Of a stretch of 64,000 bases of DNA, positions 3,010 through 53,694 are shown one piece after another. Within the stretch, counting starts at the first letter, position 1. Each line of letters starts with the position of its first letter. The notes under the pieces were generated by a model, which had not been told where the DNA came from, made no database searches, and was given only the letters and a program-made list of their open reading frames with translations. Source of the stretch: Phycisphaerae bacterium (GTDB taxonomy: Bacteria > Planctomycetota > Phycisphaerae > UBA1845); contig JAJDDQ010000039.1 in assembly GCA_029260215.1 (NCBI GenBank), forward strand, positions 48,313 through 112,312, read 5' to 3'. The position numbers and the translations under genes were made by a program.

Positions 3010-3615
3010 CTACGTCCGCTCGACCATCCAGTACTCAATTTCAACCGGAGTCGATCGCCCGAACACTTCCAGCACGACCGTGACCATACCGCGACGCTCA
3101 TCGACCGACTCGACCGATCCTTCGAAGTTCTCGAAGCTGCCCTCGGTAATCTTGACCGACTCGCCCTTCTTCAGGTCCAGTCCGCTCAGACCGGGCGCCT
3201 CTTCGGACTTCTCGCAAGCCGCCAGCATGGCAGACACTTCGCCCACCGACATGCGAATCGGCTTGCCCGCCGACGCGATGAAATCACCCACGCCGGAAGA
3301 TTCCTTGATCGTAAACCAGACATCCTCGTGAATCCGGCCATCTTCTTCGGTGGCCATCTCCACAAAAACGTAGCCCGGGTAAAGCTTGCGCTCAGCCACC
3401 CGAACCTGTCCGGCCTTGATACGCCGCTCCTTGACCGTCGGCACAAGCACGCGACCGACGCGATCCTGAAGCCCTTCGATCGCAATTTTGCGCTCAAGCG
3501 TCACCCGAACGCGATCCTCCTTGTTGGAGGCTACGCGAAGCACATACCAGTCCATTCCCGGGCTGGTCGCCGTTGGCGCGTCCGACTGGTCGGTTTTCGG
3601 ATCCGATTCGACCAT
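3010..3615 (-). CDS. nusG: Transcription termination/antitermination factor NusG
   Basis: NGN domain (WYVLRVASNKE...YPGYVFVEM) and C-terminal KOW (GESVKITEGSFENFEGSVESVD). Synteny secE-nusG-rplK. Confidence 0.95.
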   Translation of the reverse strand: MVESDPKTDQSDAPTATSPGMDWYVLRVASNKEDRVRVTLERKIAIEGLQDRVGRVLVPTVKERRIKAGQVRVAERKLYPGYVFVEMATEEDGRIHEDVWFTIKESSGVGDFIASAGKPIRMSVGEVSAMLAACEKSEEAPGLSGLDLKKGESVKITEGSFENFEGSVESVDERRGMVTVVLEVFGRSTPVEIEYWMVERT

Positions 3616-3618
3616 GAA

Positions 3619-4191
3619 TTAACCGGGACCGCCGGTCTCCAGAACACCAATCAGCTTGAAGAACCAGATGAACACAAAATCCGCACTCGCCAACAGACAC
3701 GCCATCAATATGGTCATGCCAATGACGACTTTGGTCGAACCAATCAGCTCACTGCGACTGGACCAGCTCACCTTCTTCATCTCGCCTTCAGTGGCGATCA
3801 GAAAATCACACGACCCTCTATGAACGCCGACAAGCCAGAAAAGCAACAGGCCGGTAGCTACGAGGAAGGCTGTGGGAACCGCATATTGCACCCAGAGCAT
3901 CCACGGCGCATCGCCGGTCAGCACGCCTTCCATGCTGTTGAGAACGAAATTCGCACCACCCAGAATCAAGATGCCACTGCCCACAGATGTCCCCATCCGC
4001 GTGTAGTACCCCTGCCCGGGCTTGTAGATTTCAAAGAACCGCCGCCGCGCAACAGGCTGCTTGCGACTGGCTGTTTCCGATCCGCCCGTTTGAGACACCG
4101 AACGACCTCCCGACTTTCGCGACGATCCGCCCTTACGCTCGAGCGTCGCGATCGAGTCTTTGGCTACCGAGTCAGATTCCGAGTTCGCCAT
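3619..4191 (-). CDS. secE: Preprotein translocase subunit SecE with a long Arg/Ser-rich N-terminal extension and extra TM segments
   Basis: C-terminal part (EMKKVSWSSRSELIGSTKVVIGMTILMACLLASADFVFIWFFKLIG) is SecE-like. Start moved to ATG 4191 because the 4236 start would abut tRNA-Trp. Confidence 0.8.
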   Translation of the reverse strand: MANSESDSVAKDSIATLERKGGSSRKSGGRSVSQTGGSETASRKQPVARRRFFEIYKPGQGYYTRMGTSVGSGILILGGANFVLNSMEGVLTGDAPWMLWVQYAVPTAFLVATGLLLFWLVGVHRGSCDFLIATEGEMKKVSWSSRSELIGSTKVVIGMTILMACLLASADFVFIWFFKLIGVLETGGPG

Positions 4192-47038: not shown

Positions 47039-47449
47039 ATGAAACCCGGATTCGAACCAGGCATTACGCGCGAAGTGCAGGTCACCGTCACACCCGAAAT
47101 GTGTCCCGCGTTCGACGGAATCATTGTTCATCGGGTCTACTCCACATGGTCAATGGTGCATCATATGGAACTGGCCGCCCGGAAGGTGCTCGTCGATTTT
47201 CTCGAGGACCACGAGGAGGGAATCGGAACGCGCGTGTGCGTCGATCACAAAGCGCCAGCGGTCGTCGGAACGCTCGTGACGGTTCGGGCGGAGTTGGTAA
47301 AAGTCCGCCGGAACATCGCGATTTGCAAGGTGGCAGCTTGGGACACCGACCGTCTTCTCGGCGAAGGCGAGCAGCATCAAGCCGTACTCACCAGGGACAG
47401 CCTCGCCAAGATCATGGCCCGCGCATCGAATCAAAGTCTGAACGAATAG
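47039..47449 (+). CDS. Hotdog-fold thioesterase (FlK-like family)
   Basis: 136 aa. The pattern VTVTPEM......VHRVYSTWSMVHHMELAARK...GIGTRVCVDH.AP...G is typical of this thioesterase family. Confidence 0.8.
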   Translation: MKPGFEPGITREVQVTVTPEMCPAFDGIIVHRVYSTWSMVHHMELAARKVLVDFLEDHEEGIGTRVCVDHKAPAVVGTLVTVRAELVKVRRNIAICKVAAWDTDRLLGEGEQHQAVLTRDSLAKIMARASNQSLNE

Positions 47450-47480
47450 ATCCGTCCTTGTTGCGTAGTCTTTGCCCATG

Positions 47481-47513
47481 CGCAGCGAGCCGCGAACTTC
47501 AGTTCGCGCGGAC
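47481..47513. repeat. Repeat family E copy 3 (CGCAGCGAGCCGCGAACTTCAGTTCGCGCGGAC)
   Basis: Between the convergent thioesterase and CPBP genes. The stem carries A/T where copies 1 and 2 carry G/C, a compensatory pair. Confidence 0.75.
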
Positions 47514-47598
47514 GTCCCAGGTGTCACAACCACAAGTCACCACGCGCGTCGAATCCGTTCTCGGCCCACGGACACCCCATCAACGCCCCATCGCCGTT

Positions 47599-48486
47599 TC
47601 ATCTGCTCAAAGTTTCCCACAGCAGGGTCTTCGCGTTGAACAACGCATGCAGAACGATCGGCGCCAGCAGAGAACCGCTGCGCACATACAGCAAGCCAAG
47701 CAACACACCCAGCGCAGCCAGCGCTGGCACGACGTGCGGCTGCGGACTGTCGCCACCGCCCGCGTGGATCGCACCGAACACCGTGCCCGTAATCAAGACC
47801 GCCGCCCAACGACGCCCCAGAAGATTGGCCAAACAATTCTGCACCATGCCGCGGAAAAAAATCTCTTCCGCAACCGGCGCGATCAACACCGTGCCGATCC
47901 AAAGCGTCACAAGCGGCACCTCGCCCGCGCGCAACGCGTCGATCACATCGTGCTCGAAAACTTCATATCCGGGAAACCAGGCCGTGATGGAAAGAAGTGT
48001 CAGATTCAGAACAGCCCAGCAGATCGCCAGCGACGCAAGGAGATACACTCCGCCAAGCGCCGCCGAACGCATGGCACTGATGTCACCGAGCAGGAACCGC
48101 CCCGCCCCACCGTCCACCACGCGGCGTGCAACAACGAGGCAGGCCATCGCACCGAACAACTGCGCAACGTTGCCGCACCAGATCATCGACACGTCGCGCC
48201 GATCCTCAACCACCCAGCGCTGAACAGCCTCGGCCAAAATCGTCGCAGTCAACAACCAAACGAGCAGCGGCGCGAGCACCGCTTCCGGCGAAATGCGGTT
48301 CGGCGGAACGTGTGACACCAAAACCGAAGCGCACCGGGCACGAACCCAGCGCGAAACACCCGCCACGACGACCGCCGCGCCGAAGATGATCAAAAAACGA
48401 TCGGCAAGCTCAAGAACGTCAGTCACTACGATTCCGTGCAGCAAAGGGAACACCGGGGGAACCACGGCAAGCACCGCCGCCCACAA
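47599..48486 (-). CDS. CPBP-family intramembrane glutamic endopeptidase (CAAX protease / Abi family)
   Basis: Motif 1 EEIFFRG, motif 2 FGAIH, motif 3 HALFN, and multiple TM helices. TTG start 37 nt downstream of the small peptide gene. Confidence 0.9.
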   Translation of the reverse strand: MWAAVLAVVPPVFPLLHGIVVTDVLELADRFLIIFGAAVVVAGVSRWVRARCASVLVSHVPPNRISPEAVLAPLLVWLLTATILAEAVQRWVVEDRRDVSMIWCGNVAQLFGAMACLVVARRVVDGGAGRFLLGDISAMRSAALGGVYLLASLAICWAVLNLTLLSITAWFPGYEVFEHDVIDALRAGEVPLVTLWIGTVLIAPVAEEIFFRGMVQNCLANLLGRRWAAVLITGTVFGAIHAGGGDSPQPHVVPALAALGVLLGLLYVRSGSLLAPIVLHALFNAKTLLWETLSR

Positions 48487-48523
48487 TCGGCACGCCCTCC
48501 ACAGTCACCGAACGTTCGCGAAC

Positions 48524-48649
48524 TCAGAACGTGATATTGGAAAAAACGTCGGTCAACGATCCAAACACGAACGTCAGCAGGTTCTCAAGAAAGCCGAACA
48601 GCGCCGACAAAAACGTACTCAAGCCAAAATCCACCAATGAACCACCCAT
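48524..48649 (-). CDS. Unannotated 41-aa hydrophobic acidic peptide (paralog 1)
   Basis: Below the ORF-track size cutoff. ATG 48649 is preceded by AAGGAAG with an 8-nt spacer. MGGSLVDFGLSTFLSALFGFLENLLTFVFGSLTDVFSNITF. Same length and same C-terminal NIT+hydrophobic residue as the peptide at 48884-49009. Confidence 0.55.
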   Translation of the reverse strand: MGGSLVDFGLSTFLSALFGFLENLLTFVFGSLTDVFSNITF

Positions 48650-48677
48650 TTTGAATACTTCCTTATAGCTAGCGAAA

Positions 48678-48705
48678 ATCATATGTCAGCCGTGCCGACC
48701 GACAA
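48678..48705 (-). promoter_or_regulatory. Sigma70-type promoter for peptide 1 (and probably the CPBP gene)
   Basis: The minus strand reads TTGTCG (48705-48700), a 16-nt spacer, then TATGAT (48683-48678), about 30 nt upstream of ATG 48649. Confidence 0.45.
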
Positions 48706-48758
48706 CGTACGACCATTGTCCGCCCGCACGACGTGTCCGAAAAGGGGATACCACACAG

Positions 48759-48801
48759 CAAAAGAAAAATCCACTATGCGCGCATCGCGACGATAGTGGA
48801 T
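48759..48801 (-). terminator. Rho-independent terminator after peptide 2
   Basis: The minus strand has ATCCACTAT (48801-48793), a 15-nt loop, ATAGTGGAT (48777-48769), then TTTTTCTTTTG. Confidence 0.55.
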
Positions 48802-48883
48802 CGCTGATGATTGGAGAACCGCCGACCGGCACACGCGCCGCCATCAAGCGTTCAGTCAATCGATTGCATAACCCGCACCCAAA

Positions 48884-49009
48884 CTACAGGGTGATGTTGA
48901 GCAGGTCGTTAATGATGGTGGTGAGGGCAGCCAGGAAACCATCGAGCAACGTGCCGAAAGTCGCCTGAAACACATCGAGAATTCCACGAGAAATCGTATC
49001 AAAAAACAT
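48884..49009 (-). CDS. Unannotated 41-aa hydrophobic acidic peptide (paralog 2)
   Basis: ATG 49009 is preceded by TAGGAG with an 8-nt spacer. MFFDTISRGILDVFQATFGTLLDGFLAALTTIINDLLNITL. Located in the lowest-GC stretch of the window. Confidence 0.55.
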   Translation of the reverse strand: MFFDTISRGILDVFQATFGTLLDGFLAALTTIINDLLNITL

Positions 49010-49070
49010 GACAAAAACTCCTATTTCTTGTCTTTCCTACTTGGCTGTAACCGCGCCTACAATCGGCTTC

Positions 49071-49114
49071 TTGCCACGGAAGTGTATTCTTGACTGGCAA
49101 AAGGCTCTTGACAA
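49071..49114 (-). promoter_or_regulatory. Candidate promoter plus operator-like palindrome upstream of peptide 2
   Basis: The minus strand reads TTGTCA (49114-49109), a 17-nt spacer, then AAGAAT (49091-49086). This overlaps the palindrome TTGCCA-N18-TGGCAA (49071-49100). Confidence 0.35.
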
Positions 49115-49123
49115 GGGGTAATC

Positions 49124-50239
49124 CTAAATATTTTGCCCCGCGAAAAAAGCCGCCCCCATGCGGTCCGCCATCGGCTGATTGGAAAAAATCAACGGCAGGA
49201 TGTATTGCGTCTCGGTATTCGGCGGCCTGAGATATTCCGCCATCTCCGTACGCCAACGCGTGTTGAACTCCATCAGCACATCCTGCGGGCTGGGCGCACC
49301 GATCGCCTCATGGGCGACGTCAGCCGCGATTTTCGCCGACCACATGCCAGGGTAAATACCCTCCCCGCTGGTGGCTGACACAAATCCGCCCGCATCGCCT
49401 ACGATCAGCGTGCGCTTGGCCACGTGCGTGTCCATCGCCAACGCAACCGCCGCCGGCGTGGAAATCGCCTCGCTGCGGGCGGCGACGTCGCTCAGGTCAA
49501 CATCGATCAAATCGTGGGCCAACGCATGCTTGCACAGGGTGGTGATCTTGTGGATCGTCTCCGCCCGCTCGCCTCCCGTCTGCACGCTGATCGTCGCCCG
49601 ACCCCGACCAGACACCACAACACCAATGCCGCCGAAATTATCCAGACCGAGCACCACCGACACCTTCGGCGGGCCTGTTTTCACATCCTCCGCCTCAACA
49701 TGCGCTGCCCACCACCCCGAAGGAATACTGCCCGGACCGAGGCGAAGCTGATCCAGCAATTGCGATTTTCTCCCGGAAGCGAGAATCAGCACCGACCCCC
49801 GCAACGGCACCCCTCTCGACGGTTCAGCCGTCACAAATTCCTCGCCCAACCGGATTTGACCGATGGACATCGCGTCGTGAAACGACACCTCCGCCGACTC
49901 CGCAGCCCGGACGAGCTTCTCGTCGAACCCCGCACGGTCAATCAGATAACCCGGTGTCGACGGAAATTTCGGCGTCGCTGTCTTGGTGAAATCGGCGTTG
50001 AAAAACGCCACATTGTTGATCGGCACAGCGTCAAGATCCTTGAGCTTGACACCGATCTCGCCCAACAACGGCACCACGCAGCTCCCCAGCCAGCCCGCGC
50101 AAACGCGAGGCCGAGGATGCTTGGCTGCATCGATCAGCGCTACATGGCGATCCTTCGCCGCCATCGCCAAAGCGGCCGTCGCACCAGCCGGACCCGCACC
50201 GACCACGATCGCATCAAATTGAGCTTCCGCCTTACTCAC
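49124..50239 (-). CDS. FAD-dependent oxidoreductase, geranylgeranyl-reductase-like family
   Basis: N-terminal dinucleotide fold DAIVVGAGPAGATAAL, and LIVGDAGGFVSATSGEGI near the C-terminus, typical of the GGR/FixC-like family. Confidence 0.88.
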   Translation of the reverse strand: MSKAEAQFDAIVVGAGPAGATAALAMAAKDRHVALIDAAKHPRPRVCAGWLGSCVVPLLGEIGVKLKDLDAVPINNVAFFNADFTKTATPKFPSTPGYLIDRAGFDEKLVRAAESAEVSFHDAMSIGQIRLGEEFVTAEPSRGVPLRGSVLILASGRKSQLLDQLRLGPGSIPSGWWAAHVEAEDVKTGPPKVSVVLGLDNFGGIGVVVSGRGRATISVQTGGERAETIHKITTLCKHALAHDLIDVDLSDVAARSEAISTPAAVALAMDTHVAKRTLIVGDAGGFVSATSGEGIYPGMWSAKIAADVAHEAIGAPSPQDVLMEFNTRWRTEMAEYLRPPNTETQYILPLIFSNQPMADRMGAAFFAGQNI

Positions 50240-50266
50240 TGCCGCTCTTCCCTTGACCGCATGGGT

Positions 50267-51616
50267 CTATTCAATGTCCAGTAGTTTCCACAACGCCTGC
50301 TCAACCTGTGAGAATCGCGCGAGCGACTGCTCAAGCTCCTCGCGCACCGCCGCAAACGCCGGATCGTTCACCGGCGTCTCCCCGCCGTTGGCCTCCACCA
50401 TCGCAGACAGACGCTCCGTCAAATCGTCCAGATGGGCCGACGCCTCGGTGAACTCCCGAACCGCGTCCAGAATATACGCCTGCTGCGATTCGGTCTCAGA
50501 CGGCTTGTGGATCAGTCGCCACGGTTGACGACGCAGGTCTTTCGCAACGGCTTTGAGATGCTCACTCGCCTCCTTGGCATTGTCCACGATCGTAACAGCC
50601 CGGTCCGCACCCAGCACAGCCACGCGACGGACCTTGTCGCTGGCCACGTTCAGGTCTGCCAGCGCGCGGTTGATCCCGTCAGCTGCTTCGTGCGCTTTCC
50701 TCAACAGGCTCTTGGCCCGCGTCGGATCGAATTCGTCCACGATCGCCGGCACGACCGATTGGTCAAGCGTGCCGACCATGTGCGTCACACCTTCGACCGT
50801 ATGACGCACATCCGCACGGTTTTCATCGATGATCGCGACGACGCCCATCAGCGCCAAATCAACCTGATCCAATCCACGATGAACTTTGGCCAATATCGAC
50901 CCATCGTCGCCCGCCTGAAGCTGCGCGCGCATCGCACCCGTCACCGCGTTGACGTTGGTCAGAATAGAGTCAATCTTGTGAATCAGAGCGGCTTTGCGAT
51001 CGGGATCCACCGTATCCTTCAAATCCTCGGTCATCGCGTTCACGTCGTCGAGGCTGACGTGAATCTTCGCAATTAGCGAGTCCGCCATAGACGGGTCAAG
51101 CTGATTCTTGATTTGCGACAGCAGGCTGCCCGGGTCATCCGCGTCGAATTCACGTGAAATACTGCTGAATTGAGCGGCGAATCCCGCGACTTCCGCATAC
51201 AAAGGGCCGCCGTCCGTCGCCCTCCGCTCAGACGTCCCGCGATTCACAATGCGCAGCTGCCCCGTATCGCCCAGCAACGAACCCGACACGGTGATCGAGC
51301 AATCCTCGCGTAAGCCGACGGCTGTGCGCACCTCACCCACCAGCTCGAAATACAAAAAATTCTCAGGCCCGCCCTCTTCACGCGCGGGGGCTTCCAGAAG
51401 CATCACCCGTTGAATACTGCCGACCTGTTGCGGGCCGCAGATAATCGGTGCCCCCGGCTTGATCCGCGGAACGTCCTGATCGTGCCCAATCCGCACCACG
51501 ATAGGTTCGGTCTCGTCGAAACTCTGCCCGCCGATGTACATCACGCCGACGACGAACAGAACCAGACTGAGCGTCACCGCAAGGCCAAGCTTAAAGCTGT
51601 CACGCTGCCGTCCCAT
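50267..51616 (-). CDS. mlaD: MlaD/MCE-domain protein with long helical C-terminal extension
   Basis: N-terminal TM (LGLAVTLSLVLFVVGVMYIGG), then an MCE beta-barrel-like region (IKPGAPIICGPQQVGSIQRV), followed by about 300 aa of helical repeats. Confidence 0.82.
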   Translation of the reverse strand: MGRQRDSFKLGLAVTLSLVLFVVGVMYIGGQSFDETEPIVVRIGHDQDVPRIKPGAPIICGPQQVGSIQRVMLLEAPAREEGGPENFLYFELVGEVRTAVGLREDCSITVSGSLLGDTGQLRIVNRGTSERRATDGGPLYAEVAGFAAQFSSISREFDADDPGSLLSQIKNQLDPSMADSLIAKIHVSLDDVNAMTEDLKDTVDPDRKAALIHKIDSILTNVNAVTGAMRAQLQAGDDGSILAKVHRGLDQVDLALMGVVAIIDENRADVRHTVEGVTHMVGTLDQSVVPAIVDEFDPTRAKSLLRKAHEAADGINRALADLNVASDKVRRVAVLGADRAVTIVDNAKEASEHLKAVAKDLRRQPWRLIHKPSETESQQAYILDAVREFTEASAHLDDLTERLSAMVEANGGETPVNDPAFAAVREELEQSLARFSQVEQALWKLLDIE

Positions 51617-51702
51617 TCAAGTCCTTCGATTCAAAAAGAAAACAATGACTCATCATTCCTGCGCGATGCGTCCCTATTTCGGTTTTTCAGGGACGACTCT
51701 TT

Positions 51703-51875
51703 CCTGCCCCCTCCTTGCGACGATAAGCATTCCCTCTTTAACACCGGGCATCCCAATCTCTTCCCCCCTTGCAAAGGGGGGATACAGGGGAGTCCGGGAC
51801 CGGAACAACATTTCACTTCGCAAGAAGAACCTCCCCCAGCCCCTCCTTGTCAAGGAGGGGAGGAAGAGAACATTC
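51703..51875. repeat. Family A repeat copy 2 (no recognisable terminal inverted repeats) inside the mla operon
   Basis: Contains CCCCCCTTGCAAAGGGGGGATACAGGGG and CCCCTCCTTGTCAAGGAGGGGAGGAAGAG. Lies in the 312-nt gap between mlaF and mlaD. Confidence 0.65.
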
Positions 51876-51928
51876 GTCACGGCGCAGCCGCATCATAGCG
51901 GCTTTCGCACTTCGCGAGAACGGACCGA

Positions 51929-52831
51929 CTACTCGCCCGCGATAATCAACTTCTCAAATTCCGTCATGCCGTCGGCATCGGTGATAGGCCCTTCGCTCGC
52001 GCCCCGCAGAAACTGGTGCATCAACCGCTCGTCGCGCCCGTCGAGCGTCCCGGGGTCGGCATCGCGGATGCGCTCAAACTCACAACGGTCGCCGATCTTC
52101 AACACCCGCCCCTTGTCCAGCATGACCATGCGGTCCGCAATGCGAAAAGCCGAATCCATTTCATGCGTCACCACGACGCTCGTCACCCGCAACTTCCGGG
52201 ACAAATCCATCATCAACTCGTCGATGGCTGCACTGGTAACCGGGTCCAAACCCGCCGACGGCTCGTCGTAGAAGAGAATCTCCGGGTCGAGCGCCGTCGC
52301 CCGTGCCAGACCCGCACGCTTTTTCTGGCCGCCCGAAAGCTGCGACGGCATCTTGTTGCGATGGGCCAGCATCTTCACCTGCTGAAGCTTAAGCGTCACA
52401 ACGATGTCGATAATCGACGCATCGACATACGAATGCTCAATCAACGGCAACGCCACATTCTCCGCCAGCGTCATCGAGCCGAACAATGCTCCGCTCTGAA
52501 AGAGGATTCCGTAACGCTTGCGCAGCTCGTTCAAGCCATCCTCATCCATGAGCGCGATGTCCGCCGGCTCGCGCATGTTCTTGGTAAAAAACAGGATATG
52601 TCCGCCATTGACGGAGTATTCACCGATCAGACAATTCAGCAGCGTGCTCTTGCCGCAACCGCTGCCGCCCATAATCACCAGCGTCTCGCCGCGGCGAATA
52701 TCGAACGTCACACCGTCCAGAACGCGGATCACACCGCCATCGCCCGTCGGGAATTCCTTGACCACGTCGCGAACCGAAATCGCCAGATCAGTCGCCGATC
52801 CCCGAGCGCTCGCCACCTCAGACTCCTTCAA
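51929..52831 (-). CDS. mlaF: ABC transporter ATP-binding protein, MlaF-like
   Basis: Walker A GGSGCGKST, signature LSGGQKKR, Walker B ILFYDEPSAGLD. 4-nt overlap with mlaE. Confidence 0.9.
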   Translation of the reverse strand: MKESEVASARGSATDLAISVRDVVKEFPTGDGGVIRVLDGVTFDIRRGETLVIMGGSGCGKSTLLNCLIGEYSVNGGHILFFTKNMREPADIALMDEDGLNELRKRYGILFQSGALFGSMTLAENVALPLIEHSYVDASIIDIVVTLKLQQVKMLAHRNKMPSQLSGGQKKRAGLARATALDPEILFYDEPSAGLDPVTSAAIDELMMDLSRKLRVTSVVVTHEMDSAFRIADRMVMLDKGRVLKIGDRCEFERIRDADPGTLDGRDERLMHQFLRGASEGPITDADGMTEFEKLIIAGE

Positions 52832-53694
52832 ATTCCCAACGCATAGAAAACGGCAGTGAACATGGCATCGATTCCGATCAACGCCACAATCGACTTGACC
52901 ACCGTCGCCGTCGTCGCCCGACCGACGCCCTCCGCACCGCCCGAAACGTTCAATCCTTCATAGCACGCGATCAACGCAATCACCGCACCGAACACACAAG
53001 CCTTGACCAAACCCGTGACAAAATCCGTCATCTTCAAGGCGTCCAGCGTCAGGTTCACATACAAAGACGGTGGGACATCCAGAATGAACACGGAAGTAAG
53101 GAACCCGCCGAAAACACCGATGTAGTCCGCCATCACCGTCAGAACGACAATCATCCCCGCCGTGGCCAACACGCGCGGGGTGACAAGAAACCGTACCGGG
53201 TTCAGGGCGTGTGCGCGTAACGCCTTGATTTCCTCAGCCTCCACCATCGCCCCGATCTCAGCCGCGATGGACGCGCCCGCGAAACCGCTCAGCACGATCC
53301 CCGTCAGCAGAGGCCCCAACTCACGCACCACGGCGATGCCGACCACGTCCGCCACACGCTCCAACTGCCCATACGATTGAAGCGTCGGCGCCATCTGCAA
53401 CGCCAGGATCATGCCGATGAAGATTTGAACCAGGAAAACAATCGAGATGCTCCGAACACCAACCCGCACCATCTGGTGAACCAACGCAGGCCAACCGAAT
53501 CTGATCCGCGACTGAAACACACCGCGAAAAGCCCAGACCAGCGCATCGTAAAACAGATAGGTCACGCCGCCGACAAAGCTGAGAATCGACACAAGACGCG
53601 ACGCCTGATCCCGCGTAATCGAACCCACGCCCGAAATCGCGCGATAAGCGATGTGGCTGCGACCGGCGGCGGATTCGGAAGACGGGTCACTCAT
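52828..53694 (-). CDS. mlaE: ABC transporter permease, MlaE family
   Basis: Conserved MlaE segments are present: VRELGPLLTGIVLSGFAGASIAAEIGAM, AL.A..LNPVRFLVTPRVLA, and the GGAEGVGRATT motif. Confidence 0.9.
   Translation of the reverse strand: MSDPSSESAAGRSHIAYRAISGVGSITRDQASRLVSILSFVGGVTYLFYDALVWAFRGVFQSRIRFGWPALVHQMVRVGVRSISIVFLVQIFIGMILALQMAPTLQSYGQLERVADVVGIAVVRELGPLLTGIVLSGFAGASIAAEIGAMVEAEEIKALRAHALNPVRFLVTPRVLATAGMIVVLTVMADYIGVFGGFLTSVFILDVPPSLYVNLTLDALKMTDFVTGLVKACVFGAVIALIACYEGLNVSGGAEGVGRATTATVVKSIVALIGIDAMFTAVFYALGI

Follow-up and report, generated by a model that had tools for sequence, protein, structure and literature searches.

The Abi/CPBP immunity modules of lactic acid bacteria (PlnEF-PlnI, PlnJK-PlnLR, and SkkAB-SkkI of sakacin 23K) have one or two small peptide genes followed by a CPBP gene on the same strand, and the Abi-linked bacteriocins described so far have a positive charge and a double-glycine leader. 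According to PMC8538875, which cites Kjos 2010, an Abi/CPBP protein makes the cell immune to bacteriocins encoded next to it, probably through proteolysis. The CPBP protease MroQ of Staphylococcus aureus removes the amphipathic leader helix of AgrD (PMC9388083), and SilX of Streptococcus anginosus is implicated in SilCR signal peptide processing (PMC9298176). Here, we analyzed 64,000 nt of a Phycisphaerae bacterium (GCA_029260215.1, contig JAJDDQ010000039.1, positions 48,313 to 112,312, forward strand). This full 64-kb stretch is referred to as the window, and coordinates are counted within it unless another locus is named. In the window, two open reading frames (ORFs) of 41 codons, encoding peptides A and B, lie directly upstream of a CPBP gene. 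Their conservation in relatives indicates that both are genes of a small peptide family linked to this protease.

The architecture of small peptide genes followed by a CPBP gene is already known from Firmicutes bacteriocin and pheromone systems. A CPBP gene directly downstream on the same strand is found in the window and in five related loci (L082, L084, L086, L172, and L173). The intact catalytic motifs, the varying peptide copy number, and the helical peptides with small-residue stripes are further likenesses to the modules of lactic acid bacteria. In class IIb two-peptide bacteriocins, two different peptides with GxxxG-type motifs are encoded side by side in one operon; the window has two peptides with small-residue stripes, and a predicted terminator lies between their genes. 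Unlike in the Abi/CPBP modules, the peptides have no double-glycine leader and a net charge of -1 to -4 and so are not cationic, no C39 peptidase or dedicated ATP-binding cassette (ABC) exporter and no regulatory genes are linked, and the host is a diderm planctomycete. The CPBP gene itself is an older syntenic gene that is also present without the peptide.

The MroQ-AgrD and SilX-SilCR systems likewise combine a CPBP protease with a peptide of about 40-46 residues that has a membrane amphipathic helix. However, the locus described here has no Cys for a thiolactone and no linked two-component receptor, and no AgrB-like gene was found in the window neighborhood. The mroQ gene is not adjacent to agrD, whereas the genes here are adjacent and coupled. 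The peptides have no Pfam match that would mark them as AgrD precursors, and there is no significant sequence relationship at the level of the family, although one member is locally similar to AgrD1. The differences from the Firmicutes systems are a new sequence family, the lack of a leader, the anionic character, the lack of Cys and Lys, the lack of a linked exporter and regulator, the different phylum, and the recruitment to an older housekeeping CPBP operon.

Two small genes, their relatives, and their linkage to CPBP

The three genes of interest are as follows.

49009-48884, minus strand: peptide A gene, 41 codons and a stop, MFFDTISRGILDVFQATFGTLLDGFLAALTTIINDLLNITL (ORF listing; family hidden Markov model [HMM] E = 7e-9)
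48649-48524, minus strand: peptide B gene, 41 codons and a stop, MGGSLVDFGLSTFLSALFGFLENLLTFVFGSLTDVFSNITF (ORF listing; family HMM E = 7e-17)
47599-48486, minus strand: CPBP (Rce1-like, "Abi") glutamic intramembrane protease gene, 295 residues, TTG start, Pfam PF02517

A preliminary description of this DNA had proposed the two minus-strand ORFs, and both their coordinates and their translations agree exactly with our reading of the sequence and with the ORF listing. It had also singled out 48487-49123 as the stretch of lowest G+C content (GC), and these are indeed the lowest-GC 637 nt in the window, at 50.4% vs 59.2% overall. The low overall GC of the two ORFs is largely due to a composition rich in Phe, Leu, Ile, Thr, and Asn. 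At third codon positions, GC (GC3) is 0.64 in both, higher than at first and second positions (GC1 and GC2), which is the pattern expected of coding sequence in this genome. Other frames of this stretch also contain ORFs of 30-57 codons, so ORF length by itself is not significant for peptides A and B; conservation in relatives is the evidence that raises both above chance.

Relatives of the peptides were found by retrieving CPBP orthologues and then reading the sequence upstream of each. Coordinates below are those of each locus.

L082 (metagenome-assembled genome [MAG] GCA_029260255.1; CPBP 55% identical), 1097-1219, CPBP strand: VGSLLNTGLGGFLGALFGFLSQLMSAIFGSLTDIFSGVSF; the TGA stop abuts the GTG start of CPBP
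L084 (CPBP 59% identical), 874-984, CPBP strand: VLDFGLGLDGFLNALIEYIINLLNSIFGNLFGGFLF; the gene caller took only 29 residues (895-984)
L086 (CPBP 53% identical), 136-255, CPBP strand: VSDFGSSLDGFLTAFFDFLTQLLETIFGSLGSFFGGLFG; called as a 39-residue gene
L172 (MAG GCA_036477795.1), 3866-3985, CPBP strand: VLNFGTALDGFLATLFEFITQLLETVFSSLAVFFGGFLG; missed by the gene caller
L173 (CPBP is the nearest neighbor of the window CPBP in the neighbor-joining tree), 3-80, CPBP strand: ...DGFVGGVLSLFNGILDLVLSVFRGLF; partial, cut by the contig start

Frame and substitution tests were performed on five full-length ORFs (window A and B, L082, L084, and L086) using Nei-Gojobori counts. The proposed frame is the only one that is stop-free in all five. 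The proportion of synonymous differences (pS) is 0.68-0.95, which is essentially saturated, while that of nonsynonymous differences (pN) is restrained at 0.32-0.42. Silent sites have therefore changed freely at the DNA level, whereas the peptide stayed constrained. Frame conservation with a ratio of nonsynonymous to synonymous substitution rates (dN/dS) below 1 had been named beforehand as a check on the two genes; the frame is kept while synonymous sites and flanking DNA have diverged, and pN is below pS. These patterns indicate that both window ORFs are protein-coding genes and that their amino-acid sequence is under purifying selection.

In addition to the five homologues directly upstream of CPBP orthologues, an exact-sequence look-up gave two near-identical variants: P0028, a G24S version of peptide A from a second NCBI contig, and P0030, which is the L086 peptide with G31A, S32G, and G35A. 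There are thus seven further homologues and nine members in total. Close variants differ only by small-to-small swaps (G to S, G to A, and S to G), and peptide B is 60% identical to the L082 peptide. The family HMM recovered all members, with E = 5e-6 for the partial L173 peptide and 7e-9 or better for the rest, and had no further match in the rest of the window or among the 173 loci fetched. Weak HMM matches in Bacteroidota loci L065, L072, L144, and L149 were rejected as off-frame translations of other genes. A and B are members of a small peptide family that is restricted to one lineage; its peptides are leaderless, are 36-41 residues long, and share the recurring core [DN]FG..LDGFL.AL...L..LL..IFG.L.

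The two genes had been described as unannotated. This holds for the exact peptide B, which is absent from the protein collection, but peptide A is present in an NCBI-derived protein set, and both 41-residue genes are called on a Logan contig that is 100% identical to the window. Several of the peptide ORFs were predicted independently by gene callers. For the seven homologues with a known locus, two are uncalled, one is called too short, and one lies beneath a wrong-strand call; the last is the L173 peptide ORF, which sits under a 78-residue gene call (L173 3-236). A longer, 52-codon reading of B from an in-frame ATG at 48682 (48524-48682, minus strand; N-terminus MIFASYKEVFKMGG) was rejected, as it has no Shine-Dalgarno sequence (SD) and no conservation in relatives. 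The N-terminus of this 52-residue reading is superficially like a double-glycine leader, and its ATG overlaps the TATGAT hexamer of a promoter-like site listed below.

A word-indexed search of 5.8 billion proteins matched A only to itself and B to nothing. An exhaustive phmmer search with A against 1.84 billion representatives returned only A itself and the spurious repeat proteins P0026 and P0027, and tblastn searches of 80 genome loci with the two peptides gave only noise. A metagenome scan with an alignment of B and the L082 peptide gave no confirmed match, and one with CPBP found only relatives at <=37% identity, none of them with a peptide. The peptides have no match in Pfam, NCBIfam, or PDB sequences, with no Pfam match at E <= 10 for the five members scanned. 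No description of such a peptide family was found in the literature searched.

Paralogy of A and B had been claimed from a gapless match. This match beats composition-preserving shuffles (p = 0.005), but the family alignment pairs A residues 17-41 with B residues 8-29, and the pairwise BLASTP match is weak (E = 0.037). An internal period of about 11 residues within the peptides leaves the choice between the two registers ambiguous. The N-I-T-hydrophobic C-terminus that had been noted is common to A and B but is confined to the peptides of this genome and is not found family-wide.

A neighbor-joining tree was built from 24 CPBP orthologues. In it, those with a peptide gene fall into a single subclade of uncultured Phycisphaerae, and six of its seven members have the peptide ORF directly upstream. 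In every genome with known surroundings, the peptide gene is directly upstream of, and on the same strand as, the orthologous CPBP. The next gene upstream differs, with an FAD (flavin adenine dinucleotide) oxidoreductase in the window, L082, and L172, MgtC in L084, and unidentified or cut-off sequence in L086 and L173. Coupling is tight in L082, L086, and L172, ranging from abutting stop and start codons (TGA then GTG in L082) up to a 15-nt gap. There are two copies of the peptide gene in the window and one in L082, L084, and L172; one was seen in L086 and L173, where the contigs are cut off just upstream. Linkage to CPBP genes had been put forward as another check, and its persistence across three upstream contexts, along with frame conservation, supports the peptide plus CPBP module proposed in the preliminary description.

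The upstream neighbor in the window provides context for the history of the pair.

49124-50239, minus strand: geranylgeranyl-reductase-family FAD oxidoreductase, assigned by family match

In distant orthologues, the gene order is MlaE - MlaF - 449-residue protein - flavoprotein - CPBP, with the tyrosyl-tRNA synthetase gene (TyrRS) next in L170 and a few genes further in L171. The same order, in which the 449-residue protein has no family match, is seen in the window (47599-53694, minus strand), L169, L171, and L172; the flavoprotein and CPBP genes overlap in L171. Distant relatives carry CPBP without the peptide, and therefore CPBP is older and the peptide gene was inserted before it. The pairing of an isoprenoid-reductase-like protein with a CAAX-protease-like protein hints that CPBP may serve a housekeeping lipid or isoprenoid function, independent of the peptide.

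Candidate expression signals, predicted peptide helices, and the protease

The candidate expression signals of the three genes are listed here.

49023-49018, minus strand: SD of peptide A, TAGGAG, 8 nt before the ATG (49009), read from sequence
48664-48658, minus strand: SD of peptide B, AAGGAAG, 8 nt before the ATG (48649), read from sequence
48500-48495, minus strand: SD of the CPBP gene, GGAGGG, 8 nt before the TTG start (48486)
49114-49086, minus strand: promoter-like site of peptide A, TTGTCA-17-AAGAAT (TTGTCA 49114-49109, AAGAAT 49091-49086), from a consensus scan and alignment with the element of relatives
48743-48715, minus strand: homology-supported promoter candidate of peptide B, TTTTCG-17-GACAAT, aligning with the promoter block conserved in L082 and L086
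48705-48678, minus strand: alternative promoter-like site of peptide B, TTGTCG-16-TATGAT, from the consensus scan (9/12 matches), not conserved in relatives
48802-48768, minus strand: intrinsic-terminator-like hairpin after peptide A, with a T-run to 48760 and then TTTTTCTTTT, from folding

The purine-rich SDs of A and B read as they had been described, each 8 nt from its ATG. TAGGAG or AAGGAG with an 8-nt spacer is also found in L084, L086, and L172, and the L082 counterpart of the peptide B SD is GGGAG, 8 nt from a GTG start. Every family member with a known start has an SD at this distance from its start codon.

A consensus scan of 47400-49300 gave exactly the two promoter-like sites claimed previously, TTGTCA-17-AAGAAT and TTGTCG-16-TATGAT, vs 0.7 +/- 0.8 in shuffles. 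The A promoter aligns with an element of the relatives, TTGCCARGACA-N13-ASAAT (a TTGCCA-17-cAgAAT promoter), that occurs once each in L082, L084, L086, and L172, always about 75 nt upstream of the peptide start and nowhere else in the fetched loci. A second window match to this motif, at 62188-62216, was rejected because it is inside a coding gene and within chance expectation. A conserved sigma-70-like promoter is therefore predicted before the peptide gene in relatives and before peptide A. For peptide B, the site claimed previously is present, but homology to the promoter of the relatives indicates a second candidate, so B has two. This second candidate, TTTTCG-17-GACAAT, is about 65 nt upstream of the B ATG and is a weak match to the consensus, being a degenerate copy of the relatives' element, and its assignment to B is tentative.

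The TTGCCA-N18-TGGCAA palindrome reported over the A promoter is present (TTGCCA 49100-49095, TGGCAA 49076-49071). At 49071-49100 on the minus strand, it straddles the -10 hexamer, and L084 has a TTGGCAA/TTGCCAA inverted pair at ~745-780 that spans the -35. The palindrome could be an operator, and its position is not conserved across loci. A stem-loop and U-tract terminator had also been claimed after peptide A. The hairpin folds at -18 kcal/mol (z = -3.0), with none of 200 shuffles as stable, and it is followed by the T-run, in line with that claim. Peptide A is thus a predicted stand-alone transcription unit with its own promoter-like site and terminator. Peptide B ends 37 nt before the CPBP start, as stated previously. 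This spacer has no stable fold, and B is probably co-transcribed with CPBP.

In L172, a tandem array is located at 3565-3696, between the flavoprotein gene and the peptide promoter, with an 8-nt unit of AGGCACGG, a higher-order period of 42 nt, and 94% matches. A segment that is complementary in part, CTCCACTCCGTGCCTTCGTGCC, comes next. There is no equivalent in the window.

The peptides are rich in Phe, Leu, Gly, Ser, and Thr and contain no Cys or Lys; their sole Arg is in peptide A. Their description as hydrophobic, net acidic, and unlike the described bacteriocins was accurate, and the SD-defined starts leave no leader on them. Over the full length, the hydrophobic moment peaks at 94-98 degrees per residue in all six full-length peptides, which corresponds to ~3.7 residues per turn and a period of 11 residues. 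Evaluated at the usual 100 degrees per residue, the moment is greater than in shuffles, with p from ~0.05 down to <0.0002. One face of the helix is broad and made of Phe, Leu, Ile, and Val, and the other is a narrow stripe of Gly, Ser, Thr, and Ala with Asp, Glu, and Asn. AlphaFold2 (AF2) predicts peptide B as one uninterrupted helix (residues 3-40, predicted local distance difference test [pLDDT] 91) and not as the helical hairpin that had been anticipated. From the moments and this model, we infer that each peptide would form one continuous amphipathic helix of ~40 residues. The best 19-mer scores +2.8 to +6.4 kcal/mol in a crude Hessa-scale sum, which is a marginal transmembrane propensity.

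The CPBP protein matches PF02517 with E = 3.1e-23 and 82.3 bits, against a cut-off of 22.4. Its catalytic motifs EExxxR, FxxxH, and HxxxN are intact (EEIFFR, FGAIH, and HALFN) and are kept in every full-length orthologue, with E207, E208, R212, and H241 invariant across the 24 CPBP orthologues. The AF2 model (pLDDT 90) has the all-helical Rce1-type fold. The only high-probability fold match in the PDB is Rce1 (4CAD), a distant match with a probability of 0.66-0.90 and a TM-score of 0.41-0.48 over three chains; a PDB sequence search with CPBP gave only noise. The protein does not reach the cut-offs of the NCBIfam CPBP subfamilies (MrtJ, MrtS, MroQ, and Rv0804 among them), as the best specific model, MrtJ, scores 53.5 bits vs 75 and MroQ scores 24 vs 270. 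The peptides lack the Cys-containing C-terminal sorting signal of myxosortase-type substrates. We also looked for clade-specific CPBP substitutions that would mark a peptide-binding surface, and there were none of note.

Possible roles of the peptides

We tentatively favor, with a probability of about 0.4, an Abi-like protection or turnover of the membrane peptide by the neighboring CPBP. Having no signal peptide and marginal transmembrane hydrophobicity, the peptide would partition into the producer's own cytoplasmic membrane. The adjacent CPBP, with its intact catalytic motifs, would act on the membrane-embedded peptide, and by cleaving or turning over this membrane-active product, it would protect or regulate the producer. 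The basis for preferring protection or turnover is that peptide A is a stand-alone, terminated extra copy and that the SDs are strong, which suggests an excess of product over protease.

Among described membrane-active peptides, the phenol-soluble modulins (PSMs), especially the ~44-residue anionic beta type, and delta-toxin are similar in being leaderless single amphipathic helices without Cys. Beta-type PSMs are also similar in length and net negative. A leaderless single amphipathic helix within the PSM-type range of 20-45 residues is what is predicted for the peptides, and this is a functional resemblance only. Unlike PSMs and delta-lysin, the peptides are far more hydrophobic, have a narrower polar face, and come with no Pmt-type exporter, and CPBP linkage is not a PSM feature. 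The five members scanned had no Pfam match to PSM, delta-lysin, or staphylococcal haemolytic families.

Several observations weigh against protection or turnover by CPBP. That CPBP predates the peptide fits a maturation role or an accessory-subunit role of the pair at least as well. Because CPBP also occurs without the peptide, it has some function that does not depend on it; a dedicated immunity gene would instead move together with its toxin. The FAD oxidoreductase directly abuts CPBP in the peptide-less relatives L001, L002, L004, and L168-L171, and in L085, a member of the peptide-bearing subclade, the 225 nt of available upstream sequence contain no peptide gene. The peptides are anionic and leaderless, vs the cationic, leader-bearing Abi-linked bacteriocins, and it is unexplained how such a leaderless product would leave a diderm cell. 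Nothing besides the peptide and CPBP is conserved across loci, and no exporter is linked; the only nearby ABC genes are of the MlaE/MlaF type and are present in peptide-less relatives as well. Finally, only nine members are known, all from uncultured Phycisphaerae (marine-type Planctomycetota). A broader proposal is that a new class of leaderless, anionic, hydrophobic amphipathic peptides was inserted before a housekeeping CPBP in one Phycisphaerae lineage and then became its dedicated substrate, and this we regard as doubtful. In that case, recognition might be via the hydrophobic C-terminus (N-I-T-L/F in A and B), loosely like the C-terminal CAAX logic of Rce1 without prenylation.

Alternatively, the peptide could be a precursor from which CPBP releases a shorter peptide for signaling or export, in the manner of MroQ acting on AgrD and, as proposed, of SilX acting on SilCR. 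CPBP proteases are known to process small peptides with an amphipathic membrane-anchoring helix (PMC9388083, PMC9298176). The L086 peptide (136-255), at FFDFLTQLLETIFGSLGSF, resembles the leader of S. aureus AgrD1, FFDFITGILKNIGNIAAY (AgrD1 sequence checked in PMC10196373), with 8/19 residues identical and 15/19 positive, p = 0.001 vs the shuffled leader, and E = 7e-4 when this one pair is compared. This similarity is not seen in the other family members, with AgrD1 scoring only 6.5 bits against the family HMM and most members having no excess similarity; AgrD homology was therefore rejected at the family level, as a resemblance and not membership. A shared protease could recognize A and B by their N-I-T-hydrophobic end, which other family members lack, but a conserved cleavage-site motif is not evident. 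Furthermore, no peptide matches the Pfam AgrD model or has a Cys, and none of the loci has a linked AgrB-like gene, receptor kinase, or exporter. We consider maturation of this kind unlikely.

The genes of small proteins are often adjacent to those of their membrane partners, and the peptide may instead be an uncleaved subunit or regulator, binding CPBP through the small-residue stripe to modulate CPBP activity or stability. Insertion of the peptide gene upstream of a pre-existing housekeeping CPBP and the tight coupling in L082, L086, and L172 are consistent with such a role. The Gly/Ser/Ala/Thr stripe is of a type used in helix-helix packing, and a marginal transmembrane propensity would favor partner-assisted insertion. 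KdpF, CydX, AcrZ, and MgtR are comparable in that they are hydrophobic helices of <50 residues, often unannotated, and encoded and translated with a polytopic membrane partner. However, these are usually classical transmembrane helices with flanking basic residues, whereas the present peptides have acidic residues along the helix and no Lys, and there is an extra stand-alone copy with its own terminator. The separate promoter and terminator of A, SDs that look stronger than a stoichiometric subunit would seem to need, a copy number of one or two, and the lack of clade-specific CPBP changes marking a new binding surface all speak against an uncleaved partner, which we likewise judge improbable.

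The ORFs could also be regulatory, with translation of a leader peptide controlling CPBP expression and the product being irrelevant. They lie immediately 5' of CPBP, with the stop abutting the CPBP start in L082, and the 5' untranslated region (UTR) is ~65-80 nt. This is very unlikely given that the amino-acid sequence appears to be under purifying selection with saturated synonymous sites and that a strong predicted terminator and a second cassette separate A from CPBP. In addition, we found no convincing conserved 5' UTR structure (one 7-pair hairpin with negligible covariation, and single-sequence z-scores that were mostly unremarkable) and no Rfam match for the region.

A type I toxin-antitoxin-like arrangement, in which a hydrophobic toxin is held under an antisense RNA and CPBP is a mere neighbor, would account for a small hydrophobic product with its own promoter and a long 5' UTR. 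We think this most improbable, as the peptides have no basic C-terminus and the CPBP linkage is kept across rearranged contexts; the consensus scan of 47400-49300, of a type that cannot exclude an antisense RNA, gave no promoter-like site on the opposite strand. Lastly, that these are chance ORFs in an AT-richer intergenic spacer, as the other-frame ORFs and the weak A/B BLASTP match might suggest, is effectively refuted by a frame-specific ORF, SD spacing, and promoter conserved in five other loci, by pN well below pS, and by the independent gene calls.

Other window features and implications

Elsewhere in the window, a 1672-residue ORF (39199-44217, plus strand) has a HEMGHLWGAFH zinc-protease-like motif and about a dozen tandem Cys-rich repeats of ~38 residues (...CTPLDQCHVAGTCDTVTGLCDDPFAPNGTGCNDNNACTQTD...).

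The peptide family is tiny and confined to uncultured bacteria, with no phenotype attached. Nevertheless, conservation-based rescue of small ORFs worked here where gene callers fail. To our knowledge, CPBP/Abi proteases are very widespread and only a handful have a known substrate; a conserved and coupled peptide neighbor offers a candidate substrate or partner for one of them. The addition of a peptide gene to an older CPBP operon is also a dated example of how a peptide-protease pair may originate. We know of nothing of the peptide/CPBP kind described in Planctomycetota. If the peptides are indeed dedicated substrates of CPBP, this would be the first peptide/CPBP pair described in this diderm phylum, and it would show how such pairs originate.

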